57,404 nucleotides of DNA from Nemertoderma westbladi (Eukaryota; Animalia; Xenacoelomorpha), in assembly GCA_032718475.1 (NCBI GenBank), contig JAUCBJ010008256.1, positions 1 to 57,404 of the forward strand. Reading direction: 5' to 3'. The translations under genes and the position numbers were made by a program. Within the stretch, counting starts at the first letter, position 1, and each line of letters starts with the position of its first letter. Shown in pieces: positions 1,535-50,360 of the stretch. Below the pieces are notes generated by a model. The model saw only the letters and a list, made by a program, of their open reading frames with translations. It did not search any database and had not been told where the DNA came from.

Positions 1535-2553
1535 GTGAGGTATGCAGGCCCCTCCCGGGTACATCTAGGCTTCCTAACTAACCCAATTCCTGCCCCCTAA
1601 TACTAAATAGAGACAAAACCTTGGATCATCAGTCCCCTAATTACTGTACCGGCGAGCGGTCTCCAACCCACAGTCCAAACTGCCCGACCACAACGTTGAC
1701 CCCCGCCAGCGTTGCCCGCTTTTGAATCCTCCGCACTCCCTTCGTCGCTAACCCCCCGATGAGCCCACCGCCCACTGGCACCTTAGCCCTCCATTATGCT
1801 AATAGCTACCGTAGCGGCGCATGCAAATCACAAAGTCTGACAGTCTCAGAAATCCCTTAGGATTATTGCGCAGAAAGGAATCACATAGAACCATTAATCA
1901 AAAGGTAGAAATCATAGTTCAGTTGTAATTAGCAGTAATAAGGAATTAATTGAGAAACACAATCAAAGATAATCGCACATGTGAGGTGATCATGTGAGGT
2001 TCTACCGGCACACCGCCAATTTATAGGTGATCCGGATGGGGTGATGCAATAGGGTGACGCAATCGCTCTCCTATTGGCTCTCCAGTCCGCGCTAGCATTA
2101 GACCAACCTGGAAGCAGTTAATCCAATAAGGAGGCCGGATTGTAGCCCTATGCCCTCAAATTATTACCATATATGGTAATGGATCACGTCCCTGGCTGCT
2201 GAATGGCCAGGACGGCGTCCCTATATGCTAGCCCTATCAAACTAATATCAGCAAGCACAAAATCCAGGGTCCGAATAAACTCGCTACCCTGGAACTATCT
2301 ACATATATCCTAATACAAAATTACGTAGGTAGGGCTACATACTATACAAAATGGATGGACTCAAATATATGGGCGTTTTGATTTCCCTATCTAAATACCA
2401 CTGCGTTATTATGCCTTATCTAAAATATCACGCTGCACAATGGACTAATATTACGTACAGTATAACAGACTAATATTGCATACTGCACAACGGACTAATA
2501 TTGCATACTGCATGATGACTAATAATATGGATACAGCGCCATATACCGTAACA
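482..2553 (-). repeat. 3' LTR of element A (2072 bp)
   Basis: 1541-2553 matches 20144-21156 (I saw about 4 substitutions); 482-1771 recurs inverted at 18849-20130. Contains ~15-bp repeats and (CTTA)n at 1420-1533 and ~25-bp repeats at 2430-2525. Confidence 0.93.
1995..2078 (-). promoter_or_regulatory. Candidate LTR promoter of element A (CCAAT, TATAAA, initiator-like CA)
   Basis: Minus strand has GCCAATAG near 2078-2071, TATAAA at 2025-2020 and TCA with the A at 1995, 30 nt from the TATA. The same TATA is in the 5' LTR at 20628-20623. Motif-based inference only. Confidence 0.5.
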
Positions 2554-14701: not shown

Positions 14702-14717
14702 ACATACCTTACTGTTA
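14702..14717 (-). promoter_or_regulatory. Original 5' LTR/leader junction of element A; non-canonical PBS position GTAAGGTATGT
   Basis: Minus strand reads TAACA|GTAAGGTATGT. The inverted LTR copy ends the same way (TTTAACA|GTAAGGTATG at 20124-20140). Confidence 0.75.
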
Positions 14718-17531: not shown

Positions 17532-18850
17532 ATTACTTCTACTGGGTACTTACCAATCTGGGCTGTTGCCGTTTTCTTTAGCACAAACAGCGTGCCATTC
17601 GGACTATCGCGGGCGCCAAATATCCTAACGTACATCTGGTATGTAACCACTGGGCCGGATAAGTCTTCATTCTCGTACCAGAGAAATCGAAGGCTATCCT
17701 GGTCTGCCTTACAGGCTCTTACCTGGTGGAACATCGCCTCGATGTCACAAGTAAATGCGAATCGCCGCTGTCTAAAACGCAACAGTATTCCTATCAAATA
17801 ATTGTTCAGGTTGGGACCATCCATCAACTCTGAATTCAGGGACATACCTCTATAGACTGCTGCGCAGTCGTTGACTACTCGGACTTTGTCTGGCTTGTCA
17901 GGGTGAGTCACATAGTGGTGTGGAAGGTAATAAGTCTGGTCTGTCACTAAGTCAGGGTCCTCTACCTTCCCAGCAAATCCCTTGGCGAAATAGTTGTTGA
18001 TCTGGGCGCAATACTTCTCCCTAATGTCCGGATTCTTCAACAACCGAGCCCTTACTCCGTTTAATCTTTTCAAGGCTAAGTTATAGTTGTTCTCCAACTT
18101 AGGTGGTTGTCGACGCCACAACATTCCAACTTCAAAATGTCCAGTCGGTAGTAGACGTATGGTATCTTCCATCATTTCCAGCGACCGCTTCTCATCAGTA
18201 GACATGGCTAGGTCATATCCACCGGGTTCCATTGCGTCCCTATCCAGCCATTCGACGGTTCTGGCTCCTGTCTCGAGGTCCTGGCGTATCAATTCCTTCT
18301 GTAATTCCTCCTCACTGTATTGGAAAATGTCTAGGTCTCGATATTTAGCCACTTGACCCTCCACTATGTCTGTATAAGTCAAAACGTTAGTCAAATAGGT
18401 AGCGTGGACCATTGAACCAGACCCACGGGTCTGATAACAGTAGTCCTCGGGTTCACTATCTGTCCGGTCATTATGAAGTGGTTCCGACAACCTAACATTA
18501 TCGGGAATCAACTCCTCGTCCGACTCGCTAAAGTCACTATAGTGGTCAATACAGGTTCTCCTAAACTCGTCTATGTCTGGTGGTTCTACTAACGGTGGTT
18601 GAATTATAGGCTGTAATTCGTCGTATCTGTTTGTTGGCTTGTCGCCACCTGTAAACTCATAAGACATGGGTACTCGTGTATACCAACCTAGTATGGTCCT
18701 ATGGGCATGTGGTCCATTGACATGCGGCTCAGATGGTCTCGTTTCCCATATCTGGTGTGCGATCCGCTGTTCTGCACCAATCAACATAGAAACATTCCTA
18801 TAACCTACCTGGTGTCTGGGTATCCTGAGCTTGTCAAAATACTCCTGTGC
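17532..18850 (-). pseudogene. Duplicated pol segment (protease tail to RT N-terminus), copy of 8311-9629
   Basis: Near-identical at constant offset 9221; gives most of the 444-aa ORF. Confidence 0.95.
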
Positions 18851-20140
18851 GGTGGGCTCATCGGGGGGTTAGCGACGAAGGGAGTGCGGAGGATTCAAAA
18901 GCGGGCAACGCTGGCGGGGGTCAACGTTGTGGTCGGGCAGTTTGGACTGTGGGTTGGAGACCGCTCGCCGGTACAGTAATTAGGGGGCTGATGATCCAAG
19001 GTTTTGTCTCTATTTAGTATTAGGGGGCAGGAATTGGGTTAGTTAGGAAGCCTAGATGTACCCGGGAGGGGCCTGCATACCTCACAGTAAGTAAGTAAGT
19101 AAGTAAGTAAGTTGCGAGTAAGTAGATTGCGAATTAGTCAATTGCGAATTATTATGTTGCGAATTATATAATTGCAGATTGTATAATTGCAAGTCGTGCT
19201 ATTGTGATCTGTGATTGCTGACGCTGATTGGTGTGTTACTAAAGTGTGCCTATGATTACGAATGCTTAGATAGGCGCTCTTTTCCCTTTGATTGATTCTA
19301 TCTCTTAGTTTACCGTAAATAATTACTGATTAGGTCAAAGTAATACAGTATTTTAGGCTGTTACATATTTGTGACTGTAATTAATTAGTAAAATTAAGAA
19401 TTAGTACGCAGCATAGCGGAGAGTAGCTAAGGTAATAATTTAGAGTACCGTAAACTATTCACGCTAAGCGGTTATTTGCATTAGCGGGCAATAAGCTAGA
19501 TCGCAGTAGTCAGTACGCAAGACACTAGTAAGTTGCTGGCCTAAAGCCAGCTGCAGGCAAGTTTAGACCCAGAGCGGTATCACCTACGAAAGACATTGTA
19601 CTGTACCAATTTTGATTATTTTAAATATTCTCGCATTCACACATTCCGTTAGGGAACCCTCAGTATTCGCGATTAGAAAAGACGTAAGCATTGGCGTATT
19701 TCAGTAGTAAAATTAGGCGTAAGAATATACTCTGAGTGCAAAGCCCCTCGCACTCGTCTTAAGTAAGCTTAGGGAGCCGACTCGGGTTTATTGTTTTGGT
19801 TATTCCCGCGTGGCTCATAGATTCGAACAGTTAGCTCTCTATCGAGCGATCGGTAGAGAAAGGAACAAGCGATTTTGCAGGAGTTGTGTAAATTTAGTAA
19901 AATATATTAGCGGACGGCAGATTAGCGCCATCCAACGGTAAGTAGCGGTTTTGTATTTAGCAACCCTTACAATTTAGTAATAGCACACTCCTGATCCCCT
20001 TTACTTAACAGTAGAGCAGTCTTTGTGTCTTATTGGTTAGGCGAGAGCTCATTAGGTTGGCAGAGAGGTATACGGGTATTTGTCTGTTCAACAGTTCTGC
20101 TGTTAGTATAGGTGTCGCGGTTGTTTAACAGTAAGGTATG
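18849..20140 (+). repeat. Inverted distal part of the 5' LTR of element A plus 10 nt of leader
   Basis: Reverse complement of 482-1771, followed by GTAAGGTATG, which matches the leader at 14712-14703. Confidence 0.92.
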
Positions 20141-20143
20141 CAC

Positions 20144-21156
20144 TATGCAGGCCCCTCCCGGGTACATCTAGGCTTCCTAACTAACCCAATTCCTGCCCCC
20201 TAATACTAAATAGAGACAAAACCTTGGATCATCAGCCCCCTAATTACTGTACCGGCGAGCGGTCTCCAACCCACAGTCCAAACTGCCCGACCACAACGTT
20301 GACCCCCGCCAGCGTTGCCCACTTTTGAATCCTCCGCACTCCCTTCGTCGCTAACCCCCCGATGAGCCCACCGCCCACTGGCACCTTAGCCCTCCATTAT
20401 GCTAATAGCTACCGTAGCTGCGCATGCAAATCACAAAGTCTGACAGTCTCAGAAATCCCTTAGGATTATTGCGCAGAAAGGAATCACATAGAACCATTAA
20501 TCAAAAGGTAGAAATCATAGTTCAGTTGTAATTAGCAGTAATAAGGAATTAATTGAGAAACACAATCAAAGATAATCGCACATGTGAGGTGATCATGTGA
20601 GGTTCTACCGGCACACCGCCAATTTATAGGTGATCCGGATGGGGTGATGCAATAGGGTGACGCAATCGCTCTCCTATTGGCTCTCCAGTCCGCGCTAGCA
20701 TTAGACCAACCTGGAAGCAGTTAATCCAATAAGGAGGCCGGATTGTAGCCCTATGCCCTCAAATTATTACCATATATAGTAATGGATCACGTCCCTGGCT
20801 GCTGAATGGCCAGGACGGCGTCCCTATATGCTAGCCCTATCAAACTAATATCAGCAAGCACAAAATCCAGGGTCCGAATAAACTCGCTACCCTGGAACTA
20901 TCTACATATATCCTAATACAAAATTACGTAGGTAGGGCTACATACTATACAAAATGGATGGACTCAAATATATGGGCGTTTTGATTTCCCTATCTAAATA
21001 CCACTGCGTTATTATGCCTTATCTAAAATATCACGCTGCACAATGGACTAATATTACGTACAGTATAACAGACTAATATTGCATACTGCACAACGGACTA
21101 ATATTGCATACTGCATGATGACTAATAATATGGATACAGCGCCATATACCGTAACA
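20144..21156 (-). repeat. Proximal ~1 kb of the 5' LTR of element A
   Basis: Direct match to 1541-2553; ends at the CCTAC TSD. Confidence 0.95.
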
Positions 21157-25135: not shown

Positions 25136-25718
25136 TGTAAAAGCTTTTGCGGACATAATAAGTCATTTTTCCCGCAATGCGCAGTGTAGGGGCTTTTGCG
25201 GACATAACAAGTCCTTCTCCCGCAATGCGCAGAATACTCTAAAATAGCCCTAAATTTATCCAACTACGTGAAGGGGAGGAATCAGAGCCCAGATGATAAA
25301 ATCTATCAGCTGATTCTTTGTGGTCGTGGAACTTCTTTGTTCTGCTCAGCCAATCAGAGCGATTTTCACTTTATGTCTGACAGAGGCCTATGGAAACTCG
25401 CGCAATGCATTACGGTCTTTGTTCACCTTTTTCTGAGCCTCAGAACCGGCTTGGAATCTTCTGTACTTCTGTGTAGAAGTTTCAGACTTTGGCCTAAACA
25501 TCAGATGGCTTTGATTATAGGAACGTAAATCTATTATCCGATCACATCATATCATATTACGGTATTTTCATAACCGCATAAGTAACACATGCGACTGTTC
25601 ACCGCATTATTTTACTTCTGTTATTAATTGTTGTTATATTGATGGATATGTTGCCATATTTGGAGAATACCGATAAATAATCATAAAACCCCCAATCTTC
25701 TTGATTACTGAAGGTAAG

Positions 25719-26876
25719 TGTTTGCGCTTTTAAGACCTTTGACAGTTTAACCTGCCAAAATTAGAATGTCTTTTGGATGATAAATAGTCTTTAGCCTATG
25801 ACGAGTATTTGATACACTACATTAGCCGAAGCCAGTCTATGCGCAATCATTCACCCGTTGGATATACCCGGGAGACTGAGTTCGGAGCTTAATGATTGAT
25901 GGTGTAAGCCTACTGTATTATTCGACTGATCGTAATATATAATCTCTGACAAATATTATTCACTTTCGGGAAATATTAACAGTTCCTTTAGGACGTGGCG
26001 CTCTAAATATGTAAACAGAGTTATGACTTAAACTAGACGCAATGAGATGGCTATAGATTCACGTATATGGCGCATTCTTTAGGAGATGCTTTGTTATCAG
26101 TCACAATCATACACAATGCTGCACAATGCTGCACACCAATCTGCCGACCTTCACTAATTTTAGTCACATACAAAGAGAATAACAGACAATACATGTAGGG
26201 CCTATAAAATAGCATTAGATTCACTTCACACCACTTAACATAAGTCGCAATCGTTTATCTGTAACCGGTCTCTCTAACCTTTAGTATATATCTGACTATT
26301 GATCAGTATTCCAAATATAATCTTCCATCAACAAATATAATGAATAACCGACAGCAAAAGCAGTAATGTTAAGTAAGATATGCATGATATGTTTAGTAAG
26401 CATTGAGATATGAATTGCATTGGTATGGTTAGATAACAGATATACGTTCTATAATTAAGCCTACTAATGTAAGACTAAAGACTGAAACACGGAGGTGCCA
26501 AAAGCCGGTGTTCTTAGGCTCTGGGCAAAAACATAACACTGAATTCCTGAGTTTCTGTATCCACCTCCAACACAGAGACAAAAAACGCTCTGATTGGTCG
26601 ACCGAACAACGAGAGAACAAAGAAACAAAGAAATGTCGACGTGGCAATATCAGCTGTTAGCCGTCGTCATGGTAGCGACACTGTTTTCAAGAGTATCGAG
26701 CTTTTTGCATCACGAAATTGCGGATTATGTCCTCTAAAGTACAAATACAGAAGAAATGGCTTTTATGTCCTCTAAAACACCAGTACAGCAAGGACACGGC
26801 CTTTTTATGCCTGGTAAACCAACCACAGAGTACTTTACGGGGTTAATAACCGGCTAATTACGCAAAAGCTTTTACA
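25719..26876 (-). repeat. 3' LTR of element B (1158 bp)
   Basis: Matches 36753-37924 except a 14-nt indel and about 3 substitutions seen; preceded by GGGAGCGG. Confidence 0.95.
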
Positions 26877-26902
26877 CCGCTCCCAGAAAATGGGATTTAA
26901 GT

Positions 26903-28499
26903 CTATAAAATATAACAAATCACAGTTTCTAAAATATAAAGATACTCTAAACAGTTAGTCTTTCTTACGCAGACGGCGTTTACGCAGTTTTTTGAGGCTA
27001 GCAAGAGTCCTTTTCTCTTTGGGGCGAGCCACTTTACTAGGAGGGCTATAAATCCTGGGTGAAGGGTGCAATATGATTGCATCAGAAGGTGTAGGATTAT
27101 GGTCGGGGTATCCGCCGTTTCGATATGCTTCTCCTCGAGCTGATTTTCCTCCGCTCGTAGCTGGATACGTTCATCCAAAAACTCTCGCAGAGAATGGGGT
27201 TGTCTAAGTTCGATATCTTCTTAGAGATTCTGGATTTCACAATCGAACTGAGATAAAGACAATTCGTTTATCGCTTGGACTTGCTGTTTCAACTTACGTT
27301 TATCTGAACAAACGCAGGTTTCCTTTCTGATCTTTGTAGAATAGCGTTTAACTCGTTTGGTACAACGTTCTCCGCCACTTTGGTGACAGGTTATATCGTG
27401 TTAAGCCGGGACGATGGTAAGGGTTAAACGGCGATATTAAATGTCCGCGTCCCAATCCTGCTAGGTAGAATGGGCTAATATCTAGGAAGCCCACAAATGG
27501 GGTGCCACCGACTAATTGTTCAGGTAACACTAGATCTTTGAGCAGTGAGTGCAGCTCGGGAGGATCCGTCATACTAATAGGATCAAGAGTCTGAGGTCTC
27601 ACTAGGGAATGAGGAGCTCTGATCGAGTATTCCGAAACTCTGATCATTGGTTTATTTAAGGATCGTCTGAGTCGAACGAGCGTAGGTGATACATTGAACA
27701 AGTTTCGCTCGAAACTCCCGTAAGTATAGCGAGTAAAAACGTGTTTAAAACAACGTCTCCGCGGATGTTTATGTCTTTCCGTTTGTTGGTTGGGTCTTGG
27801 GCATTCCTCGCAATAATACCAAAAACGCACATCTTGTAGGGGAAACTCGAGTAATCTTTCTCCAGCTTACAATATTCCTCCATCCGTTCGAAGCTATCTG
27901 GTACAACAGGTAGCGGTCGATCGGCGGTAAGATACATCATAGTGGAATAGAGCCGTTTGAGTTCTACCATGCGGTCATGATGTATACCTTGAGGATATCG
28001 AGTTTCTAGATTCTGTTGACTGGTAATATCGAGATAGGTTTCTCTCAAGAATTCCAGGTATTTGGTGAAGTCGCTGCGTTTATCCGGCTCTTCAACATCT
28101 GCACTTTCGAGTCGGTTTCGAATAGAATTTTCGTGTTCGAGTCTCAGTTTATCGTTCCGCTTCCGCTGGGTATGATATTTAAATAAACCATTTCCCTTTT
28201 GGTGTCTATATCGTTCGTATCGTGTAGGTCGATAGGATGACCAGTAGTTAAGAAGTCCATATACGTACCATTACGATGCATATAGCGAGCGGTAAATTTT
28301 CTGCAGTCCAACCCACGCGCAAGTTGCTCCCGGGAGATTGGCGGTTAGATATAACGACCATCGTCCTCCGTAGTAGTTGGACCAGCGTCGCCGCGTATCA
28401 AGCTATCAACAAACGCTTGTAAAGGTAGAGTATATCGCTCCCTGATACCAAGATCATCTTCTATCAACTCAATAATATCTGCTATATAAGTTTATCCAT
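26903..28499 (-). pseudogene. Broken accessory reading frame(s) in the env position of element B
   Basis: Series of same-strand ORFs (27656-28048, 27348-27830, 26903-27178). The 130-aa frame is open upstream to about 28270, and there is an ATG in ATAATGGA context at 28499. No recognised domain. Confidence 0.45.
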
Positions 28500-29313
28500 A
28501 TTATACTGTAATGAGTTTATATTTAGGCGAGCGGGCGTCGCTGCCTACCCCTCTCTGCCCCCGGACAGTGCGAGATCCTCAGCGCTGGTGTACTTTCGCC
28601 GATGTGCCTATCGCCAACGTCGTAGCTGCACAACGACTACAACAACCAGCACGAGCCACTCCACCGTCCGTCCCAAAGGCTTAGATATACTTCAGGTTCT
28701 TACTGGAGAGTTAGGGTTACTTTCACAATTGCGACTCGCTACTGTAAACACACCTTAGTAGTAACATTCACCTACAAACGCACAAATTCCACGTAACAGT
28801 CACAAATGGTACACATTCTATCACACATTCGGGTCATTTGTCCGTTAGTCAAGTGCCTTCCAGAATGTCACGTTGTTATTATGTATCCTTGGATACTAGC
28901 GGTGTGCTATTTATTCCGTATGCTATTCAATGCGCAAGCCCTTTATTGTTCTTTTAAGTCACTTCTAATTCTAGCGTGGTTGTTGCCATGGTGACATTAT
29001 GGAAAGCTAGCGGTAGAATTAGGGTAATTCTCATGCGTACAGATCTGGGATGCTATTTAATAGTAATTCTTTAATTGTCAATATCCTCTCTATATATGAT
29101 TTTATGAATTTTATCGGCTATTGACTATACATTGGAGATTCTCACACACAAATACACTTAATAGAGTGAATCTCCGCTCCCATGATCTATTAATTAATGG
29201 AATTTTGGGAATGTTATAAATTGTATAAAATGACAATTTATTAAATTCATTGAAATATATGAATTTAAATTTATTCCCGTAAATTTTATTATTTAATGTT
29301 AAATAGACGTAAT

Positions 29314-30120: not shown

Positions 30121-33100
30121 TTACGTTATGGAGTCCCTAGATGTTTGAAGGATTAGGGAGGTGGTCGTGGGAAGAGAATCTTGCCTTCCACAGTTTCCGG
30201 AGAGTCCTCCATTCCCTTCCGGTAAACACAAACGACCGACTGGGTGATTGAGTCGCTGCATCCCGAATACAATTCCAGGTTTCCTCTTCGTCCTGGAATA
30301 GTTACGATAGAAACATCGCTCTAGATACACGACGGCCTTACAAAGCCGATTCCAGGAGCTATAGTGGTCCGTCGCTCCCTGCAGGAGAGGTGAGAGTCCC
30401 TGCGAGACGTCTGATGTTCCAGAGCTCCAATCGCTCTCTCTGATCTTCATGAAGGATCCACTCGCGGTGGGGAGGTCCAGATCCACGGCGTCATCCCTGG
30501 CAATATGTAATACCGACAGATCTATCCCGGGTTCAAATAACTCCGATCCACCCGTCCGGGTTTTAGGTTTGACTTTCTCCGCTCCCTTGGCTGGTCTAAT
30601 CTCAGTCGGAGTAAGATGGGGAGGCCATTCATCCTCCTTACTCAGGAAGTCGGGTTCACCTAACCGGTCTGTAGTATCTGTCAGTTCTTGAGGAGTTGCT
30701 CCTCTGGAAGCGATGTCAGTTGGATTAAACTTCTTGGGGCAATATCTCCATTGATCTACATTGGAGCTAATATCGTCATTATCTGAGGAGTATGGTGTTC
30801 CCTCAGTTGGGTCGTCTCCCTCACTAGTATCATCTTCCCATTCACTCACCTGGCAGACGCGATCTTGAAGCAGTCTTTCTCTGAGCGTTCTTCGGGAAGG
30901 TCCAGTAAGGTACCAACCTACTCTAGTTCTTACCGCATAGGTCTGAAGTGGTTGCGGTTGAGCAGGTCGTATCTCCAATGTCTCCAGCGCCTCATGCGCG
31001 TTTTGACTGATTAATATTTGTACTCCAGGATAATCGGTGTCGAATCTAGGAATGTTAAGTTGTTGGGCATGATCATCTTCGTCCCAATTATAAGGTTCCA
31101 CTTGGGTGGTAGCGAAGTTCTTTATTGCCACCATTTTGACTGACCTTATACTGTGTTCTCCTAGTTTATCCTGTGGAGTGGACAACTCACCTATATAATA
31201 GTCGGCAGCCACAGCAGATTTCCAAACCTGCATGATCCCTGACATGTTTAGCTTGGTTCGGAACTTGGGTTGTCCAGCAAAGATGTCTTCGGCTAGTTCT
31301 TTATCGATGAATGTTCCTGTGCTGCCGGAGTCCAGGAGGGCGTTCACTATATAGCTCTTCTGAGGTCCGTGGACCCGTAACTGGACTACAAGAAATTCTC
31401 GGATTCCTACATTGGAAGTTGGCGCTTTCCAAAATGGTTGTCGATCAGAAGTGGTTAGAGCGAGGTCAATGTCTGTATCTTTTTCATAGATGAGTGCTCG
31501 ATACACTGTGGTATTTATCATGTAACAGGATTCGTTTTCGTCGGAGAACTCGTCCGTATAGAATCCTTCCATCTCAGATTGATCAGTGTCGTTCACATCA
31601 CTGAATTGGACATGTAGTTTGGAATCACTTACCTGACTCGGACTATTTCGCTCGAATTCAGTGTGCAACAAGATATGATGTTTCGCACCGCACTTAGCAC
31701 ATCTTGTGTCAGAGTAACAGGTTCGCCGTTGGTGTCCTTGTCTGAGGCAATTATAGCACAACCGCTTGTCCCACATGACTTCACATCTCTCAGTTAATGA
31801 TTTCTTTAGAAATTCATCACACATATTTAAGCGATGGGTCCCATCACATAGCGCACATTTCGGTTTGATGTTACTTACCTTACTCTGAGTAACATTGTGT
31901 ACACTTGTCCTTTCTTCGGGCTTTCTCACCTGAATTCTCTTGGGAGACGTAGGAGGAGTTTTTTTTACCTGTTCTCTCCTGTCATTTGTTCGAGACTTGA
32001 ATTTACTAACCTGATCTTTAGGCATTTTATTTACGTAATAAGATTTGTCAGTGTCTTTCCCGCTATCTTCTCTTTGAGAAGTCTGGCTTTCGCCATCATC
32101 TGTATAACACACTGGTGTTACCTTTCTCCTAGAGACGGGTTTTTCACTTACCTTGTTTTCCGGTGTCTTCTCTCTGGACAGTTTCAGGAGCTGTAATTTC
32201 ACTTCTCCATCTAGGAATGACATGAGATCAGCCATGGTAGGGTCTCGTCGTTGTTGTTCCATCATATATAACACTTTCTTATCCCAGCGTGTACCTACTC
32301 CACCCTTCGGTAAAGTAGAAGCCACTGCTCTAATAACCATAGCATTCTGATACTCATGAGACTTACCTAGCCAATCTAATTGTCTGCAGATCTCCTGAAT
32401 CTCATCGGAAAACTCTATAATTCCGCTGCTAATAAACTTTCGGGGCGCTACTAACTTTGCATACAAATACCCAGCTATGTTATTCCTATTACCATACCTG
32501 ATGTTTAGTGTATCCCAAACTTGTCTTAATCCGTCTGGATGTCCAATAAACTTTAACGCCATTAACTTGGGAGATCCTTCCAAGCACTCGATGAGGAACC
32601 TAAGTTTCTCTCCATTAGATAGTACAGAGTTCTGTATGTTATCTTTGTAATATTCATTAAAAGGTAACCATTTCATCTCATCTCCATTGAACTTGACGAT
32701 CTCTCCCACCTTTACTGCTTGCCGGGCTTCGGTTCTAGCCATTTGACGCGTAAAACTTTCTTGGGCCATCGTGTTATTTAATATCGAGTTATCGGTATAT
32801 AAATTTCTCGGATTATGATCCGGTCTATAGGGAATATCATTATCAACAGGCCTATAATTACCCTTAATAGGGTTCACTATAGGAGTTTCTACTTCGCTAG
32901 CAGTATAGATGCGTGTAGGCTCCACACCTTGCGCATGAGATACTTCAGACCTAACAGGTTGACACATTGTTACAAGGGGTGGTGGTATACCCTTTTGTAA
33001 ATTTACTAATTTATCACGTTCTAGCGCGATATTTTGCTGTACTTCTTGCAACTCTAACCTACTTTCCTTTACGGTTCCCTTTAACTGTTGAACAGTCCCT

Positions 33101-34551
33101 TCTAACTCTCGGACCTGTTGGGAGGAGCGTACTCGATTCTCCTCCATCTTTTCGAGGAGAATGTCCATCCCCCGCCGTCTCTCGTCCACCCAATCAACCG
33201 CCGAAACGGGATCCGCCAACGTTGTAGCGGGCGGACGAGGGACAACGGGCGACAAATCATGAATATTTCGCTCGGAGTCCAAGGCATGAACTGTCTCATG
33301 GGCTGTTCTGCTGGGCACAGGTAGCTTAGTGCTGTGCAACGGGAATTGAGAGGTAGGTTCAGGGAGTACAGGTGTCTCTACGACCGAAAAGGTGGCTTTG
33401 GGAACAGGCCTAACTATTTCAGGCTCATCTACTATAGTAGGGAGTCTCTCTATTGTAATTATTTGGTCTGTGGGTTCTGTACTACCTAAGTTGGTGTTAT
33501 TTAGTTGCCTTCTAACAGCTGGAGGCAAATCAGGCAATTTCTGACGGTGGAATGTTCTTTTACGTCGGCTTAGGTGAGATCTATTTCCTTTGCCTTCAGT
33601 GTCGGTGGTATCGCCTTCCTCAGATGATGTATAACCCTGTCTTTTGGGAGTAGATCTATTCATCATCTGCATATTACTAGCTGTTAACTGTTTATTAACA
33701 TTATCTTGTCTCTCTTGAAGATTTTCCAACTCTAGTTGGGTTGTCTCTTCAGATGCCCTCCGTTCTGCTTCTGCCACTGCTATTTTTCTTTCCGCTTCAG
33801 CCGCCTTTCTTTCCGCTTCTGCTGCTGCCACCTTTCTTTCCGCTTCTGCCGCTGCCACTGCCGCTGCTGCTGTCTTTCTATCTTCTATACGTTTTTTCTT
33901 CACCCTTTCTTCTTGGTCTCTAGCAATGCGGAGTTGTTCATCGAATTTAGCTTGGTTCGCAGCTAACATTTCCGCATCGATTGCGTCCAGCACAAGCTTG
34001 GTTCCTTCACTATTAGGGCTAAGCCCCTCCAACCTTCTCCTCAACTCTTCATCTCCTACAAAGCGTTGATAGTCTGACAGATAGATGTCAATAGCATCCC
34101 TCTTATGCGGTTTCTCTGCTGTCACTTCGCTTTCTTCTTGAGAAAAAGTGGCGTCGGTTGATTCTTCATAGGTTGGCCGCTCATCATAAACCTTATCCAC
34201 CATCTTCACTCCGCGTTCGGGCGTCCGCTCATCAGTATCCGAACTACTGGAGCTATCGGGCCGCTGAAAAATAGGTTCTTGGCTAGGATGTTGCTGCTGT
34301 TTGACAGCTGCTTCTTGATCCCGCTTGACTTGGGCCCGAGTGCCGATGATAGACCTACGATGTTGGACTAGCCTAGGATCTGACACTACTTCTGTAGGGA
34401 TGGCCTTTCTCACAGCAGGAGGTGACTTAGACTTGGATCTAGGATGTTCTCTACTTGGATCTGGGTCACTGATCTTTTTAAGACACTGTCTAACAGTCAT
34501 TCTAACACTATCTAGGAGACTATCCGACAGTGATTGGGTTGTGTCAGACAT
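30121..34551 (-). CDS. gag: BEL/Pao Gag-protease (1476 aa) fused in frame to an RNase H-tail remnant
   Basis: Zn knuckles CALC..H..C, CYNC..H..C, CAKC..HHILLH; protease LLDSGS; then jumps to QWRYCP..NPTDIASRG and YSSW remnants. No YxDD, DAS or integrase core. Confidence 0.9.
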   Translation of the reverse strand: MSDTTQSLSDSLLDSVRMTVRQCLKKISDPDPSREHPRSKSKSPPAVRKAIPTEVVSDPRLVQHRRSIIGTRAQVKRDQEAAVKQQQHPSQEPIFQRPDSSSSSDTDERTPERGVKMVDKVYDERPTYEESTDATFSQEESEVTAEKPHKRDAIDIYLSDYQRFVGDEELRRRLEGLSPNSEGTKLVLDAIDAEMLAANQAKFDEQLRIARDQEERVKKKRIEDRKTAAAAVAAAEAERKVAAAEAERKAAEAERKIAVAEAERRASEETTQLELENLQERQDNVNKQLTASNMQMMNRSTPKRQGYTSSEEGDTTDTEGKGNRSHLSRRKRTFHRQKLPDLPPAVRRQLNNTNLGSTEPTDQIITIERLPTIVDEPEIVRPVPKATFSVVETPVLPEPTSQFPLHSTKLPVPSRTAHETVHALDSERNIHDLSPVVPRPPATTLADPVSAVDWVDERRRGMDILLEKMEENRVRSSQQVRELEGTVQQLKGTVKESRLELQEVQQNIALERDKLVNLQKGIPPPLVTMCQPVRSEVSHAQGVEPTRIYTASEVETPIVNPIKGNYRPVDNDIPYRPDHNPRNLYTDNSILNNTMAQESFTRQMARTEARQAVKVGEIVKFNGDEMKWLPFNEYYKDNIQNSVLSNGEKLRFLIECLEGSPKLMALKFIGHPDGLRQVWDTLNIRYGNRNNIAGYLYAKLVAPRKFISSGIIEFSDEIQEICRQLDWLGKSHEYQNAMVIRAVASTLPKGGVGTRWDKKVLYMMEQQRRDPTMADLMSFLDGEVKLQLLKLSREKTPENKVSEKPVSRRKVTPVCYTDDGESQTSQREDSGKDTDKSYYVNKMPKDQVSKFKSRTNDRREQVKKTPPTSPKRIQVRKPEERTSVHNVTQSKVSNIKPKCALCDGTHRLNMCDEFLKKSLTERCEVMWDKRLCYNCLRQGHQRRTCYSDTRCAKCGAKHHILLHTEFERNSPSQVSDSKLHVQFSDVNDTDQSEMEGFYTDEFSDENESCYMINTTVYRALIYEKDTDIDLALTTSDRQPFWKAPTSNVGIREFLVVQLRVHGPQKSYIVNALLDSGSTGTFIDKELAEDIFAGQPKFRTKLNMSGIMQVWKSAVAADYYIGELSTPQDKLGEHSIRSVKMVAIKNFATTQVEPYNWDEDDHAQQLNIPRFDTDYPGVQILISQNAHEALETLEIRPAQPQPLQTYAVRTRVGWYLTGPSRRTLRERLLQDRVCQVSEWEDDTSEGDDPTEGTPYSSDNDDISSNVDQWRYCPKKFNPTDIASRGATPQELTDTTDRLGEPDFLSKEDEWPPHLTPTEIRPAKGAEKVKPKTRTGGSELFEPGIDLSVLHIARDDAVDLDLPTASGSFMKIRESDWSSGTSDVSQGLSPLLQGATDHYSSWNRLCKAVVYLERCFYRNYSRTKRKPGIVFGMQRLNHPVGRLCLPEGNGGLSGNCGRQDSLPTTTSLILQTSRDSIT

Positions 34552-34679
34552 GTTTGATGGTACAGTTGAATGCCTACTGCTATATTACAGTTAAAGCAAG
34601 TCTAGTAATTCAGTATCACTGTTAGCCTAGTAATTAATTACTGATACTGCTACTCAGTGTAGCGTGATATATATATAAT

Positions 34680-36471: not shown

Positions 36472-36741
36472 GTACAATCTGAGCAGGCTTACACGCCTTC
36501 TGCTCAATACTGGCCTACAAATAAATAAAACTGGCAGAAATAAGTAAACTATACAAAAGAATGAGGGGTGATCAATCCCTATTCTCTTAAACAGCCCACC
36601 GGTATACAATACCACAATCGAATAATACTGCTGTACCTGTACTACTGTAGGTACCGGTCCGGATGATCAGGCAGTCAGGCCTACTGGTTACCGATCGACC
36701 GGTACTTTCGACTAGATTGCTTACACCGCAATCCAGAAGCA

Positions 36742-36752
36742 ATATCTGTTAT
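36742..36752 (-). promoter_or_regulatory. Non-canonical PBS position of element B (ATAACAGATAT), complementary to its own LTR
   Basis: First 11 nt after the 5' LTR; exact reverse complement of the minus-strand LTR sequence at 37491-37481. Confidence 0.7.
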
Positions 36753-37924
36753 TGTTTGCGCTTTTAAGACCTTTGACAGTTTAACCTGCCAAAATTAGAA
36801 TGTCTTTTGGATGATAAATAGTCTTTAGCCTATGACGAGTATTTGATACACTACATTAGCCGAAGCCAGTCTATGCGCAATCATTCACCCGTTGGATATA
36901 CCCGGGAGACTGAGTTCGGAGCTTAATGATTGATGGTGTAAGCCTACTGTATTATTCGACTGATCGTAATATATAATCTCTGACAAATATTATTCACTTT
37001 CGGGAAATATTAACAGTTCCTTTAGGACGTGGCGCTCTAAATATGTAAACAGAGTTATGACTTAAACTAGACGCAATGAGATGGCTATAGATTCACGTAT
37101 ATGGCGCATTCTTTAGGAGATGCTTTGTTATCAGTCACAATCATACACAATGCTGCACAATGCTGCACACCAATCTGCCGACCTTCACTAATTTTAGTCA
37201 CATACAAAGAGAATAACAGACAATACATGTAGGGCCTATAAAATAGCATTAGATTCACTTCACACCACTTAACATAAGTCGCAATCGTTTATCTGTAACC
37301 GGTCTCTCTAACCTTTAGTATATCAAGAAGGTTGGGTGTCTGACTATTGATCAGTATTCCAAATATAATCTTCCATCAACAAATATAATGAATAACCGAC
37401 AGCAAAAGCAGTAATGTTAGGTAAGATATGCATGATATGTTTAGTAAGCATTGAGATATGAATTGCATTGGTATGGTTAGATAACAGATATACGTTCTAT
37501 AATTAAGCCTACTAATGTAAGACTAAAGACTGAAACACGGAGGTGCCAAAAGCCGGTGTTCTTAGGCTCTGGGCAAAAACATAACACTGAATTCCTGAGT
37601 TTCTGTATCCACCTCCAACACAGAGACAAAAAACGCTCTGATTGGTCGACCGAACAACGAGAGAACAAAGAAACAAAGAAATGTCGACGTGGCAATATCA
37701 GCTGTTAGCCGTCGTCATGGTAGCGACACTGTTTTCAAGAGTATCGAGCTTTTTGCGTCACGAAATTGCGGATTATGTCCTCTAAAGTACAAATACAGAA
37801 GAAATGGCTTTTATGTCCTCTAAAACACCAGTACAGCAAGGACACGGCCTTTTTATGCCTGGTAAACCAACCACAGAGTACTTTACGGGGATAATAACCG
37901 GCTAATTACGCAAAAGCTTTTACA
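36753..37924 (-). repeat. 5' LTR of element B (1172 bp)
   Basis: Direct repeat of 25719-26876. Confidence 0.95.
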
Positions 37925-38634
37925 GTAAGAGGAAAAGGTTACCGGTAGCAACTGCGACTTAAATTATAGTGGTTTTTGTGTGAATTAAATGCTATTTCAT
38001 AATCCCTACATGTGTCAGTTGCGATCTTCCTTATATATGATAAAATTCAGTGACGGTCGGCAGATTAGTGCGCAGTAGTGTGAAGTAGTGTGAAGTCGTG
38101 TGAAGTAGTGTGAAAGATAATAAAGCATCTCCTAAAGAATGATGCGCTATTTACGAAACTCTGTGGCCATCTAGTTGTGATTAGTATAAGTCATAGCTCT
38201 GTTTTTTATACTTAAAGCGCCACGTCCTAAAGGAACTGTTAATATTTCCCCGAAAGTAAATATATTTGTCAGAGATTATATAGTAACGATCAATCAAATA
38301 ATACAGTAGGTCTACATTGCAATAACTCTCAAGGCTCCCGAATCCAGTCTCCCTTAACTGTGGGTGAATGATCGCGCACAGACTGGCTTCGGCTGATGTA
38401 ACTTCAGTACACTGAATAATCGATATAGGCTAAAGTCGATTTATAAACAAGAGGACAACTAAAATTGGCAGGTTAAACTGCTAAAGGTCTAAAAGCGCGA
38501 ACAAAAATATACTGGAGAAAACAATACTTGTTTGTGTTTGTGGTTGTCGTGACAGACTTGTTTGCTATCTAACTTTGTTCAACTATTATAATTAAATTCA
38601 CTCTACGAAAATGATTTAAATTATTAAATACATT

Positions 38635-38703: not shown

Positions 38704-39844
38704 TGTAAAAGCTTTTGCGGACTCTGCGATGTGCTGTGTAGGTGTTTTAGCGGTCATAACAAGCGATTTTTACCCGCTATGTCTGCATGTGTGCTTTAGC
38801 GGACATAAAAAGCCAGTTTTGACGCAATACGCTTAAATACTCTAAACGATGACTCATATGACGCAATCTACCAGCTGATTTGCTGACGTGGAACTTTCCC
38901 TTCTCCTCTGTGTTCTTTGTTCGGCTCGGCCAATCAGAGCGATTTTCATTTTATGTGGGACAAGAGCCTACGTAAACCGTGCCAGGCAAGTCAGTGTTAG
39001 TTTTTATCTTTCCAAGCCCAGAACACCGGCTTAGGATTCTTCTGTGCTTCTGTGGAAGTTTCAGACTTTAGCCAACATTAGATGGCTTTGATTATAGAAA
39101 CGTAAATCTATTATCATACCAGCACTGTATACCATACCTGCATACCAGTTGACGGACACAGTGCAGTGTTACACCTTGCACAAACTATTTTACTTCTGTT
39201 TACCGTTTGTTATTAATTGTTGTATATGAAGAGATATCTTGTTATATTTGGAGAATAACGATAAATGATCATAAACCCCAATCTTCTTGATTACTGAAGG
39301 TAAGAGGGACCGGTAATCGGTAGCAATTGCGACTTACATTACAGTGGTTTTGTGTGAAGTAAATGCTATTTCATAATCCCTACATGTGTCAGTTGCTATC
39401 CTCCTTATATATGATCAAGTTGGGTGACGGTCGGCAGATCATTGTGAAGTAGTGTGACAGATAATAGAGCATCTCCTAAAGAATGCGCCATTTACGAAAT
39501 TCTATAGCTATCCCGTTGTGTTTAGTGTAAGTCATAACTCTGTTGATATACTTAAAGCGCCACGTCCTAAAGGAACTGTTAATATTTCCCCGAAAGTAAA
39601 TAATATTTGTCAGGGATTATATAGTAACAATCAATCGAATAATACAGTAGGTCTGCAACGCAATAACTTCAAAGCACCCGAATCCAGTCTCCCTTAACAG
39701 TGGGTGAATGATCGCGCATAGACTGGCTTCGGCTAATGTTAGTTTATGTGTACTAAATAGTTGTTGTAGGTTAAAGTCGATTTATAAACAAGAGGACACC
39801 TAAAATTGGCAGGTTTAACTGCTAAAGGTCTGAAAGCGCGAACA
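38704..39844 (+). mobile_element. Intact solo LTR (1141 bp), B-related family
   Basis: TGTAAAAGCTTTTGCG...AAAGCGCGAACA; TSD AACAA (38699-703 and 39845-49). Confidence 0.93.
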
Positions 39845-40668: not shown

Positions 40669-41549
40669 GAAACACCAAATACAATACTAAATGTACAGGC
40701 CAATACAATGCTGTAATGTCCTCTAAAGTTGTAAAGAGCTACATAACAACTCGCTTTTACTAACGGTGTTGAGTAATGTTACAATTTTGGAATAAAAGAT
40801 TTTACACTGATCAGTAATGAAGTCTATACGATAATGGGTTTGTTTCGAATTCCGGAGGAGAAGCGACGCTTAGTTAACCCACCAGAAACTCATTCTAATC
40901 AATATCTCTCAACACATCCTCTCTTAAGGATATGGCATTTCTACATACTTCCATTCCTAATTCGTCATTACAAGAAGCCGGTTACTCCAGATACATTCTA
41001 TCGTCCACTTTCCCAGAACTTGGATTCCAGAATATCCATAGAAAAACTTCTCAATAATTGGAAAAAGGTAATTTGTAAAAGAAAAATTATTACAGTAAAT
41101 TTATTCATAACAATGAATTAAATGACCTTGGGAGTATTTTCATGTAATGTTTTAGTCGCATTAATTGCATACATGTATTGTAGAATGAAAAGCAGTAGTA
41201 GACCCTATACAGTTGATCTACAGTCGGGTTATTCCTCCCCCAGCCGGAATCAGTACAGTGTTCAGTTATACAGTAGAATATGTGTCTAGAACAAGGCGAT
41301 ACTTAGTACGTGTCTCCTTCGTCTATGATAAAAAACTGGTTTATATTCGAACTTTCCTAGAACTTCTACGAAGTAAAAATTAAATTGAAAAGTAAAATGG
41401 CAAATCAGGAGTATTTGGAAATCCACTAATTTAGATTATGAAAAGGATCGAAAGTTTTAGGCAAACAACTACTGCATAAGTTCATGCTTGGTTTGTGTTT
41501 GTGTTTGTGTTTGAGATTTAATGTTTAATAGTGAAATATATTGCAACTA

Positions 41550-42561
41550 CGCGTCTAACTCATAGCTGAGATGACGAAATCTACTAGCTGTTTCTTTGTG
41601 CGTAGGACCTGTGTTAATTGTTGACATATTTCAGCCAATCAGCGCGATCTCCCTTTACCTGTGCTCTGTAGCCTATGTAAAATGACGCAATGCGGCAAAT
41701 TTCTCAGAATTCCTTCATTCTGATTTTCTGTCTGTTCTGACTTCGCCCGGAAACATTAGTGGCTGGAGAGAGTCATAAGAACGCAAATCTATTAACAATT
41801 CAATTCGTAACACTGCAAACGAACTCACATTCAATTAAAAGCGCATAACTTCTGACGTACTGACCCTTGCGCACAAACTGCAACACTGCTGTTGCGCCGC
41901 TAACACCGTTTTAACTGTCTTATACTATTGTTATTTGTTGTTATATATTAATGGTTGTTATATTTAGAGAATACTGACTGATAAACGTTAAATTCCCCTT
42001 AACTTTTTTAATTACTGAGGTAAGCAGAAGGGTGTATCACTAGCAATTGTGGCTCAATTTATAGTGGTCTGTATGGATATAATCAATGCTATTTCATAAC
42101 CCCAACTTATGCGAGTTGCAATCCTCCTTATATATGACTAAAATCGGTGACAGTCAGCACATCAGTGTGTGTTAGTGTGAATATTAGTGGAGAAAGTTAG
42201 TGTGAAGGTTAATAAAGCATTCCTAAAGAATGCGCCATTTGCGTTATCTCATTGCCACTCGTTGTAATTAGTGTCAGTGATAACTCTGCGTGATACTTAA
42301 AGTACCACGCCCCAACGGAACTGTTAATATTTCCCTGAAAGTAAATATAGTTGTCGGAGATTATATAGAAGTGATCAATCGAATAATACAAAATAGCCTA
42401 CTCCTCTCTCTACAATAGAATCCAGTCTCCCACACCCGTGGGCGTCATACGCCGTGCTAGACTGGCTTCAGCTGATGTCAATTAGAACGGGCGATTATCA
42501 ACTCATAAGATACTTAAATTAGCAGGTTAAACTGTTAAAGGTCTGTCTAAAAGCGCGAACA
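41550..42561 (+). mobile_element. Older, 5'-truncated LTR of the B-related family
   Basis: Collinear motifs GCCAATCAG, TTACTGAGGTAAG, GGAACTGTTAATATTTCCC and end AAAGCGCGAACA; start boundary approximate; no TSD found. Confidence 0.8.
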
Positions 42562-42799
42562 AGAAATGTTATTGAAATCATCTTGCCACTGTCCAAAGTC
42601 TTGTCCATTCCCATTCTTTTAATTGTGTTTCTTGTCAATAAAGTAGGATTTGGGAAATATTAGATAATAATAATATTTAATAATAATCATAATAATAATA
42701 GATAGATAATAATAATAATATTAATAATATTTATATGAGAAAACCTGAATGTCGTTTATACTTTCATATCATTTTATGTTAGTGTCACATTTTCAACCT

Positions 42800-43490
<691 letters not shown>

Positions 43491-45045: not shown

Positions 45046-46012
45046 GTCATAAGTGCTGATTGTTTAGGGGGCCGATATAAAGTACCGATTAAAATAGGTT
45101 TAATTTTAGGAAGTAAAAGTTCCACCAGTAAAACTTCGTCACAAGTCTCTAAATCTTCCCTACGATTAAAAGTTAAATCACATCGAATGTAAGTACAGAC
45201 ACCACCACCGTGTCTGTCCCTATCCTTACGTAAAACTACGTAATTATCAATATAAATTTCTCCATCAGAAACGCTATCATCGAGCCAAGTTTCAGAGATT
45301 GTTAAACTGCTGGGTTGGATTTATTGATTAAAATACGAATTTCGGAAAGTTTGGGAAACAGAGATCGTGCATTTAAATGCAAAAAATGCAGACCTTTTTT
45401 CTTAAAAAATTTAAAAGTTTCACTCTCAGCATCACTTAGAGTTTGCAGAGGCGATGTGAGGAATGAATCGTCGGTTTCTGATTCTAAAATAGTATCATGA
45501 AAGGGAAGTTCGGTAAAAATACAGCTATTGCAGAGAAAACTTGGCTCAAGATTGTTTCTGGTGGAGAATAAATTACTGCTTTTCCTATGGTAACATTTTA
45601 AATGTACAAATGTGTCACAACTCTCGCATTGGACGATCTTACTCCGAGAGTTTGTTCCTCGTTGACAGACGGAACAGTTGATCTTCGGGGCCCGCGTCCT
45701 GCTGGGTCCTGGGTTGATCTCAATATCCCCAGCCAGAGACAGAAGAGAGAGTTTGGCGATTAGGCCTCTAGTTCGTGGAGAGGAGACCCAAGATCTTCTT
45801 CCCCGACGAGAGCAGTAGAGGCTAAATCCACTCGTCGACCACATCTCCGTCGATTCGGCGCGGCAGTTCGAAACGGTAGCGACAGGGTGTTCCGCAAACC
45901 AGTCCAATACGGGTATTGGTTGGGTTGCAGGGTTACCCCGCGGATCGGATGGTTCTGCCACAACGAAACGGCCCAGAACGATGAAAATAGTGGAGATTAA
46001 AAGCGGTGACAT
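45046..46012 (-). mobile_element. 5' fragment of a CR1/L2-group LINE ORF: leader peptide, 2A, PHD finger, APE endonuclease (frameshifted, truncated)
   Basis: LSLLSLAGDIEINPGP; PHD-like CSVC..CESC..H..C..CNSC; HLNARSL. After a frameshift near 45302 the frame continues ISETWL..RKDR..GGGV..YRPP. Confidence 0.88.
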
Positions 46013-46264
46013 TGTGCTGTCTGGGGGGGGGGGGGGGGGCTCAAAATGGAACTCGCCCAGGGGCGCAAAAAACGAAGCTCCGCCTCTGCGCTGCCCATGC
46101 CTCCCCCTTACGTATCCGAAGATCTTCACCTGACTTTCTGAACCATGATCCCAAGTAGCAGAAATCATCCACATGCTCAAGCAAGCCATCCTTAGAGCTC
46201 ATGCCCTTACGATTAGACATTTCTTAAGGGCTGTCTAGGTTCACTGTCATGATTTTGGTCTTCT

Positions 46265-46327
46265 TGGAGTTTACAAAAAGAAGCTACCTGCAATAAAGTA
46301 GATCGGTATTTCAATAAGGGTCAAGTG
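46265..46327 (+). other. Possible upstream exon remnant of the ABCC gene (WSLQKEATCNKV...)
   Basis: Resembles the MRP L0 segment WSLNKEDTS; a phase-0 GT donor at 46328 would join the acceptor at 46484. An in-frame TGA lies upstream at 46250. Confidence 0.3.
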
Positions 46328-46484
46328 GTAATGTTTAAATGAATGAGCTGGTAAGTGATATAGAGTTTTGAAAAATATTGAATATATTGTGCTGTATATA
46401 AATACTCTAATTCTAATATTATTCTTATATTAAATTTCGTATTCTTATACGAAATCTAACTTAAAATATTTTGGATTTTTACAG

Positions 46485-49400
46485 AAAGTGTCTCAAACGA
46501 AACCCAATGCTACATCTTTACTACGTGTTATTGTTCGAACCTACTGGCGTTGTTACATAAAGAACTCGAGTCTTATGTTACTTGGATATTGTTGCATGAC
46601 CATAAAGGCGTTACTTCTATGTGAGATATTGAAGTACTTTATGCCAGATAGTACCATTTCCACCCCAAATGCATATTTGTATACCTGCTTAATTGCTTTT
46701 CTAGATATGGTATATTTATTATCGAATAACAATTCAAAATTGCTTAATACAATTCTACTTACTGAGATACAAACAGCATGTTGTTCATTGATATATGATA
46801 AAATACTTTCATTATCAATTATAGACGACCAAGAGAAGATGAGTGTGGGTTATATAACTAATTTGGTTTCAAATGATTTGGGTCGTTTAGAATCAATGTC
46901 TCGCACATTTGGTTATTTGTTTGTATCTCCATTAGTAAATCTAGTTATAACTTGTCTTCTTGTATACATGCTGGGTTTAGCTGGAGGGATTGTGGCACTT
47001 TTGATTTTGTTAATTGTTCCTTTGCAGATTTGCATTGGAAAATTATTTGCTAAGTTGAGATCCACCGCCGCACAATTAACTGACAAAAGGATATCAAATA
47101 TAGATGATATTATTAATGGAATCTCTGTTATTAAGATGAATATTTGGGAGGAGGTATATATATCAGTAATCAAAAAATTACGTCAACTTGAAATTAATCA
47201 AATTTCCAATATATTATACTTGAGGTCATTTTATAGTCTAGACTTGAATGCATTCGTTGGATTCTTGGCGTTTTTTTCTTACTCAACCCTCGGTGGTGTT
47301 TTAGATCCTACAACTGTATTCACCTGCCTGTATCTTATTAATCTTTCATGTCATTTAAGTAATCGCTTAGGGATCTTATTAGGAAACATGTCTGAAGTAT
47401 ATATTAGTTTTTATAGAATTTGCAAATTTCTTTTGGTTCGGGATAAAAACGTATTCGAAGTATTGAACGTAAAAGAAGAAAGAGTAAAAATCAATGTTGG
47501 TGAAGTAGTATTATCTAATTTATCTGCTGGTTTCTTAGACAGAGAAGAAATTATCAGAAACATCAGTATATCAGTGAAAGCCACTGAAATCTTAGTTGTT
47601 ATTGGGCAAGTTGGTTCAGGGAAGACAACTTTGCTTCAAGCTATTTTAGGAGAAGTTCCAGTTACATTCGGTTCGGTAACTTTATCAGGAAAGGTAGCCT
47701 ATGTCCCCCAATCCCCTTGGATATTTAGTGGAACAATAAGAGATAATATTATATTTGAAAGAGAATTCGAGAAGGATTGGTACAATAGATGTCTGGCGAT
47801 GTGTGAACTCAGACTAGATATAGCAGCTATGCCCAATGGTGACTTTACTGTTGTTGGTGAAAAGGGAATAGCTCTATCCGGTGGACAGAAAGCTAGGATC
47901 AATTTGTGTAGAGCCTTATATTCGCGTGCTGATATTTACATATTAGACGATCCATTTTCATCACTTGATAATAATGTTGGAAGAGCTATTTTCGAGCAGT
48001 GTTTGGTAGGATATATGTCAAAGTGTTCATCTATAATTGTGGTCACTAATGATAGTAAACATTTACAGAGTGCAGATAGAATATTAGTTCTAGAAAAAGG
48101 TATGGCAAAGGTATATGGTAAACAAACAGATGTCAATTCCGAGACAAATAAATTACTGAATTTGCTGATGAATCACAGAAATGAAAATGACATTCTTTCA
48201 GAAAATGTATTTGATGATAAGGAGAAAGAAGAAACCATGGATAGTATTGTATTAGTACATAAAGGTGTTGCTGTGGATATTATGGAAGAATCGAATGAAG
48301 TTTCTAAAGATCCTATTGAAAAGGGTTCTATTAGCAAACATATTTACTTGCATTATATAAGATCAGGTGTAACCATTCCTATGGCAACTTTATTGATGCT
48401 CGTGTCTATATTTTGCCATGGCAGTGAACCATTTATTAATTATTGGTTGGCAGGTTGGGCCACTACTGATTCACAAAATGCATATGCAACTGCGACTAAG
48501 ACCAAAACTCCAACAATTTTTGGATGGTTGACATGGAGCAGCATAATTCTGGTGTATCTTGCGATCGTTGTTTTCAATTGGTTAACTATCATAGCTAAGT
48601 TCTGTTTTGGTTATGCCCTATTTCTAAAAGCCAGTCATAAAATGCACAATGTAATAATCAAGAAAGTCATTGAGGCTCCTAAGAAATTTTTTGACTTTAC
48701 GCCTGTTGGGCAAATTCTTAACCGATTCTCAAAAGATATTGGCGTTATGGATGATATGTTACCTGACCTTCTTTCAGATATTATGCATAAAGTATTATGT
48801 ATAACAGTTGTTATTATAATATCAGTATGTGTAACCCCATGGATTTTCTTACCAACTATCCCATTGGTTGCAATGTTGTGGTGGGTTAGGAAGATTACAT
48901 TGAGGCCTATGCGTGATGTAAAGATAATTGAGGGAGTTCTTCGAAATCCTATATTTGATCACATATCACAGACATTGGAGGGACTTCCTGTGATACGTTC
49001 TTACAAAGTGCAGAATTCTTACAGAAACTATATTTTTTAATTATCTTGATAGACACAATGAAGCCTGGTTCATGATCCAGCCCATTAAAATGTTCCTCGC
49101 TATTAACATTAATATTATCTGTTTAGTTTTTGCAATGATCAATTACTGTTTGTGTATATTAATATCAGACTCTCTGCTCGATTCAAATATGACATACCTT
49201 TCATTGACTTATGTTTTAGGATTGTGCGTTTTAGTAGATAGAGCTGTAATCCTATCAGCTGATATAGATGTAACCATGACATCTGTAGAAAGAGTCATGC
49301 AGTACACTAGGATTGATGAGGAGCCATATATGCGAAAGGATTACATAACACCACCAAATAACTGGCCCAACAAAGGGATTATATCGCTTATTAATGTTTG

Positions 49401-50166: not shown

Positions 50167-50360
50167 AATGCATTAGTAAAAAGGAATTAGACCTGCATTT
50201 AAGAAAATCGTGTATTCACAATTAATCATATACTATACATTTAATGTCCTATTTAAATATTATTAAATTTAAATATTAAATATAATATAATATATTATAT
50301 TATATAATATATAATGTAATAATATAATATATTATATATAATATTAAATGTCCCATTTAA

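Follow-up and report, generated by a model that had tools for sequence, protein, structure and literature searches.

How does an LTR retrotransposon start the copying of its RNA when the sequence adjoining its 5' LTR does not resemble a tRNA-binding site? This question is raised by element B, located in a stretch of 57,404 nucleotides from Nemertoderma westbladi, which was analysed as a whole and is called the window below. The features of element B and of a second element of the window, element A, are listed in Table 1.

Element B is derived from a BEL/Pao element, as it has TG..CA LTRs, a target-site duplication (TSD), a polypurine tract and a BEL-type Gag. Its two LTRs are identical at 1154 of 1158 aligned bases (99.7%), with one 14-nt gap in addition. 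The open frame encodes a BEL-type Gag, in which DUF1759 was recognised (E 1.4e-10) and three Cys-His boxes were read, followed by a protease-like motif that gave a weak match only, and then by a remnant of the RNase H end. For this remnant, which the frame reaches by a jump from the protease, alignments were obtained with the same part of RNase H in element A and in relatives. Integrase and RT are missing, as is most of RNase H, and with them the full PR-RT-RH-IN order of pol; because it has neither RT nor integrase, the element was classed as non-autonomous. The Pao-specific domains PF05380 and PF03564 were present in all homologues found for the element B protein (8/8), and an ancestry in Ty3/gypsy chromoviruses was ruled out by the BEL/Pao domains and matches.

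The long 3' region of element B (26900-28500) is made of broken open frames with no Pfam match, which possibly represent an extra gene. It is unlike the 3' region of element A, and a tblastx comparison of the two 3' regions gave no match. ARAGORN and Rfam, run on the window, found nothing. Elsewhere in the window, positions 45302-52202 contain a PHD-finger frame, two long ABC-transporter frames and a LINE-like RT frame, and a (GTC)n tract is present at 42874-43118.

Table 1. Positions in the window of the features of elements B and A (PBS, primer-binding position)
Feature	Position	Strand	Remarks
Element B	37924-25719	-	Non-autonomous BEL/Pao derivative
5' LTR, element B	36753..37924	-	1172 bp, TGT...ACA
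3' LTR, element B	25719..26876	-	1158 bp
TSD CTTAC, element B	37925..37929 and 25714-25718	-	5 bp, flanks both ends
Polypurine tract, element B	26877..26884	-	Adjoins 3' LTR
Open frame, element B	30121..34584	-	1487 codons
PBS, element B, ATAACAGATAT	36752-36742	-	Directly abuts 5' LTR
Candidate self-primer (motif), element B	37481..37491	-	Exact 11-nt complement of PBS, in 5' LTR
Same 11-nt motif, element B	26433..26443	-	In 3' LTR
CCAAT box	37638..37645	-	Common to element B and older related LTRs; 154 nt upstream of motif
Likely poly(A) signal position	37124..37129	-	350 nt downstream of motif; inferred
Possible LTR intron, element B	36786..37312	-	Donor-like and acceptor-like sites common to C-type LTRs
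Element A	482-21156		BEL/Pao, 2072-bp LTR, TSD GTAGG
PBS, element A, GTAAGGTATG	14703..14712	-	After last 5 nt of LTR; no TGG
LTR motif, element A	1535..1544	-	Complementary to element A PBS at 9/10
Rearranged left end, element A	18846..21156	.	Turns back on itself at PBS/motif pair

An earlier note on this DNA had claimed that no TGG follows the 5' LTR of element B, and that each LTR carries an 11/11 complement of the sequence that stands there instead; both points were confirmed on recomputation. TGG is absent from the first 8 nt after the 5' LTR, and no PBS of 18 nt that would pair with the 3' end of a tRNA, as the ICTV requires, was found in element B. A TGG located 17 nt after the LTR is presumably not tRNA-like, as judged from T-loop spacing. 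The motif is at position 434 in each LTR and has no further copy on that strand of the window, so that element B presents a PBS complementary to its own LTR over at least 10 nt and lying 0-5 nt after the LTR. The note had put the chance of such a match at about 3e-4, a value five times too low: when the LTR was shuffled by dinucleotides, 31 of 20,000 sequences reached at least 11 nt (P ~1.5e-3). Inside element B, 3 of 9,836 internal positions reached 11 nt, the PBS itself being counted in. In conclusion, the 11-nt match is real and improbable by chance, and a single element is insufficient to settle the question. A primer formed across a splice junction was also considered for element B and rejected, since the junction gives at best 10 nt, fewer than the contiguous 11.

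Contigs of public DNA runs from two samples (339 + 119 records) were compared with positions 36700-36810. Two indels were listed among these records, both of them inside the LTR; the LTR/PBS junction was free of listed indels. The LTR end and the PBS are spanned by an exact 46-nt contig at a depth of 3831, compared with 36-44 over nearby unique junctions; this contig has under 31 letters to either side and is not long enough to be counted as bridging, and its depth does not equal a copy number. In one listed contig record, the likeness to element B extends through the LTR and a further 12 nt, with a single difference, before other sequence takes over, and 3 contigs depart from element B immediately past the 3' end of the motif.

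The window also contains sequences related to element B. Three older solo LTRs (C-type), about 70% like element B, are present on the + strand (25137-25718 and 37925-38503; ~38704-39844; ~41500-42562), and element B is inserted in the opposite orientation into the one that is split between 25137-25718 and 37925-38503. The C-type LTRs have two changes in the motif; their pairing with the PBS of element B is poor and amounts to -2.9 kcal/mol versus -10.5 kcal/mol for the element B motif. Among element B and three older LTRs, conservation is 0.86 in the motif block versus 0.33 and 0.49 in the flanks. A truncated relative, B2 (54822-56681), has about 85% DNA identity to element B and runs about 80 nt past the point where the pol of element B is deleted.

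Several signals surround the motif in the LTR of element B. The CCAAT box may have a promoter role. The likely poly(A) signal position reads AACAAA in element B and AATAAA in two related LTRs. It is bracketed by the donor-like and acceptor-like sites that element B shares with the C-type LTRs, and we speculate that these sites may hold back premature polyadenylation within the 5' LTR. A TATA-like word is found only 10 nt before the motif, and the motif could on that account fall in U3. For the helix between motif and PBS, the predicted probability depends on how far upstream of the motif the RNA starts: at distances of 0-17 or 35 nt it is 0.91-0.95, at 23-29 nt it is 0.28-0.40, and at 42-109 nt it is close to 0.

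Element A, the LTR of which is unrelated to that of element B, has the full PR-RT-RH-IN order, with one stop in gag at 11787. A portion of its pol occurs twice, with an interruption by 1.2 kb of other DNA. Named matches to its RT region at 37-41% identity came from cnidarians, echinoderms, molluscs and hemichordates, and the match with the highest score was an arachnid protein (29%). Its PBS also has a partial complement in its own LTR (Table 1); 216 of 5000 shuffles equalled this 9/10 match, which is therefore weak alone. The PBS of element A overlaps a strong donor-like site (8/9 consensus positions), and a splice-junction primer was sought for this element and not found. Directly after the motif of element A there is a tandem AGTA run (1505-1533) with eight overlapping splice-donor-like sites.

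The left end of element A is rearranged. Read on the + strand, it consists of part of U3, the motif, R-U5, a 12-nt copy of the PBS, an extra C, and the reverse complement of the whole U3. At the fold-back, the PBS is followed by two bases that match the motif and not the genomic leader, and then by the extra C. This arrangement would fit an aberrant reverse-transcription product, such as a folded-back plus-strand strong-stop DNA. The copied PBS retains its mismatch to the motif, which counts against an origin by reverse transcription; DNA-level repair or misassembly is a possible alternative.

The pairing of PBS and LTR was also scored in BEL relatives from outside the window. An alignment of the RT region of element A and 21 homologues led to 80 metagenome loci, at 35-43% identity. 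The 13 loci used were those whose contig contains the 3' ends of both LTRs, a choice made before the swap test, and the other 67 of the 80 were left out. The score was the longest exact complement of the post-LTR sequence in the LTR, which could be uninterrupted or span a GT-AG junction. TGG was absent in 12 of the 13 relatives; the sole TGG relative, L038, has it at +6, and its best self-match is 4 nt. Pairing with the own LTR over at least 10 nt at offsets 0-3 was observed in 9/13 relatives, versus 1/156 swapped pairs. At offsets 0-5, a range adopted post hoc after L017 was seen, the figures were 11/13 versus 2/156, with two sister families (L046 and L065) that are not independent, and with L044 scored as a miss because its 11 nt, across the junction only, appeared after the LTR end had been moved by eye. 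None of 100,000 permutations reached either count. When the own LTR was compared with shifted windows, the figures were 6/1105 and 5/741, and the same-sense control gave 0/13. A search of metagenome contigs with the exact LTR-end pattern returned 0 matches, and viral contigs gave 86 pattern matches, none confirmed as a relative.

Two forms of self-pairing were found. It is contiguous, as in element B, in L005, L046, L048, L059 and L065, and exists only across a splice junction in L007, L017, L020, L030, L034 and L077. The LTR introns of the latter are 76-186 nt long, with canonical donor and acceptor, and 11-15 nt across the junction are complementary to the PBS. L048 resembles an intronless counterpart of L034. 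The LTRs of L005, L017 and L044 appear to end in TA, not CA. The two forms are interspersed on the RT tree, a quick version from which L077 was dropped by the length filter and on which element A occupies a long, unsure branch. Since element B has no RT and the branch of element A is unsure, it is a weak similarity in Gag and protease (~20-26%) that links element B to these relatives.

The pairing occupies a defined place in these elements. It ends 0-4 nt from the LTR end in 12/15 of them and is limited to 10-15 nt, with no significant extension beyond the core (Fisher P 0.26). AATAAA or ATTAAA is present downstream of the motif in 8/11 matching LTRs, the motif ending 11-13 nt before the poly(A) signal in three relatives, and a TATA box is present upstream in 3/11. 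A motif placed between TATA box and poly(A) signal would fit a location in R. In L020 and L048 the TATA box is about 125-130 nt before the motif, which would thus be internal, unlike that of Tf1. Transcription start sites tend toward a pyrimidine-purine step, and such a step begins 11/12 motifs (background 0.51, P 0.004, post hoc). In L030, the helix is predicted not to form (0.01-0.07).

The earlier note had proposed a self-primed BEL lineage, in which PBS and LTR motif should covary. This covariation holds across families and supports the proposal. Another possibility considered there, a normal TGG site deleted from element B, left no sign: no indel is listed at the junction, and 12/13 outside relatives have no TGG either. 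Since self-pairing is kept with different letters in most of the distant relatives compared, this BEL group likely self-primes its DNA copying.

For element B, it appears probable that the PBS pairs with its own LTR and not with a tRNA end, and that minus-strand DNA would be self-primed in a Tf1-like manner. The position of the pairing, the signals, the start-like step and the predicted helix together speak for a Tf1-like priming in which transcription starts close to the motif; the chances that it starts at the motif itself are about even. Further points in favour of self-priming are the motif block being more conserved than its flanks, the 3 contigs that depart from element B past the motif, and the turn of the rearranged element A at its own PBS/motif pair, whereas the poor pairing of the C-type motif and the helix predicted not to form in L030 count against it. 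The pairing could also be real and selected but structural, serving RNA circularisation (by the 3' LTR copy with the leader) or the control of splicing or packaging, with another primer in use. Three observations agree with such a role, namely the TATA-like word just before the element B motif, the three relatives in which the motif ends close to the poly(A) signal, and the overlap of the element A PBS with a donor-like site. We nevertheless regard a structural role as unlikely, because the pairing ends exactly where the 3' end of a primer should be, a place where a merely structural helix need not sit, and because no other primer site is visible.

A host RNA, either a tRNA half, a mitochondrial tRNA or a small RNA, might instead be the primer, the match to the LTR being incidental. 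Half-tRNA priming exists in Ty1/copia lineages, according to the accessible part of PMC6317226. One shared host primer would, however, predict a conserved PBS, whereas the PBS letters differ in each family and match its own LTR and not those of the others, which makes a host primer very improbable. Finally, a chance match could have arisen in an AT-rich LTR beside a decayed or deleted tRNA site; a P of ~1.5e-3 for one element is attainable in a scan of many windows, and element B is indeed deleted elsewhere in pol. This seems barely credible, given that the LTRs are 99.7% alike and the TSD is intact, that contigs of two samples list no indel at the junction and that the exact 46-nt contig described above lies over the site, and that the same trait is present in most outside relatives.

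Self-priming of element B could proceed as follows. The motif would be part of the transcript, probably lying at the 5' end or close to it, and would fold onto the PBS, looping out about 730 nt. The RNA would be cut where the motif ends on its 3' side, in a step analogous to the RNase H cut of Tf1, and the resulting 3'-OH would face the first base past the LTR. An RT acting in trans from an autonomous relative would copy U5 and R, and the ~370 nt of R downstream of the cut would serve strand transfer. Plus-strand synthesis would then copy the primer back into the PBS, so that motif and PBS would stay matched while drifting. Either LTR copy of the RNA, 5' or 3', could supply the primer. About half of the relatives would have a primer only once the LTR intron has been spliced, element B being the contiguous form.

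A more general reading joins these observations, and we put it forward as tentative, with somewhat more doubt than belief. A large and widespread animal branch of BEL/Pao would have left tRNA priming, and its primer would be the capped first 10-15 nt of the RNA, which in many families the spliceosome would build by joining a micro-exon to the beginning of the following exon. Contiguous forms like element B would derive from intron loss by reverse transcription, and the left end of element A would be the fossil of a plus-strand strong-stop DNA that copied the primer to the 5' end.

Priming by tRNA has so far been assumed rather than demonstrated for BEL/Pao elements, and the nematode element Cer7 reportedly encodes its own tRNA-like primer. 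For the Belpaoviridae, the ICTV gives the PBS as 18 nt long, for tRNA-Arg or tRNA-Gly, and describes replication as tRNA-primed and poorly understood (PMC8742986); in contrast, element B, element A and 12/13 outside relatives are all without TGG. No report of self-primed BEL/Pao elements was found in the literature searched, outside of which lay most subscription papers, Repbase, GyDB and supplements, and they are absent from the accessible parts of PMC554778, PMC3118150, PMC8220671, PMC3286476, PMC3601003, PMC6934838, PMC5006619, PMC9094657, PMC13524379 and PMC5443660. The mechanism of self-priming is already known; its occurrence in BEL/Pao would be new, as far as the literature searched shows. 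If true, it would place self-priming in a third LTR superfamily, by repeated origin or as an old trait, and would free these BEL/Pao elements from the host tRNA supply and, possibly, from silencing by tRNA fragments. Annotation based on tRNAs would miss their primer sites, and the splice-junction form would link the initiation of reverse transcription with host splicing.

The system closest to that proposed here is Tf1, which, according to the accessible parts of the sources, primes with the first 11 bases of its own RNA, cut by RNase H (PMC7175516, PMC5341516, PMC4600332). From the same accessible parts, Tf1/Tf2 of Schizosaccharomyces pombe, Tj1 of S. japonicus and the Tf1/sushi chromoviruses are like element B in having no tRNA site and an 11-nt PBS beside the LTR, complementary to their own LTR (PMC7175516, PMC4600332, PMC5341516). 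The Tf1/sushi group belongs to Ty3/gypsy, whereas element B is BEL/Pao-derived, and the primer and RNase H cut of Tf1 have been demonstrated, whereas those of element B are putative. The loop of about 730 nt in element B and the need for splicing in several BEL relatives are also unlike Tf1. In the plant Ty1/copia TAR lineage (Houba, Osr-1) and in Tcn1 chromoviruses, self-priming was predicted by a near-identical rule, which asks for 10 nt or more beginning 0-5 nt past the LTR; these elements belong to other superfamilies and hosts than element B, and no splice-junction form was found in the accessible part of this study (PMC6317226). From these comparisons, we infer that element B works in the manner of Tf1 self-priming, outside the Tf1/sushi group.
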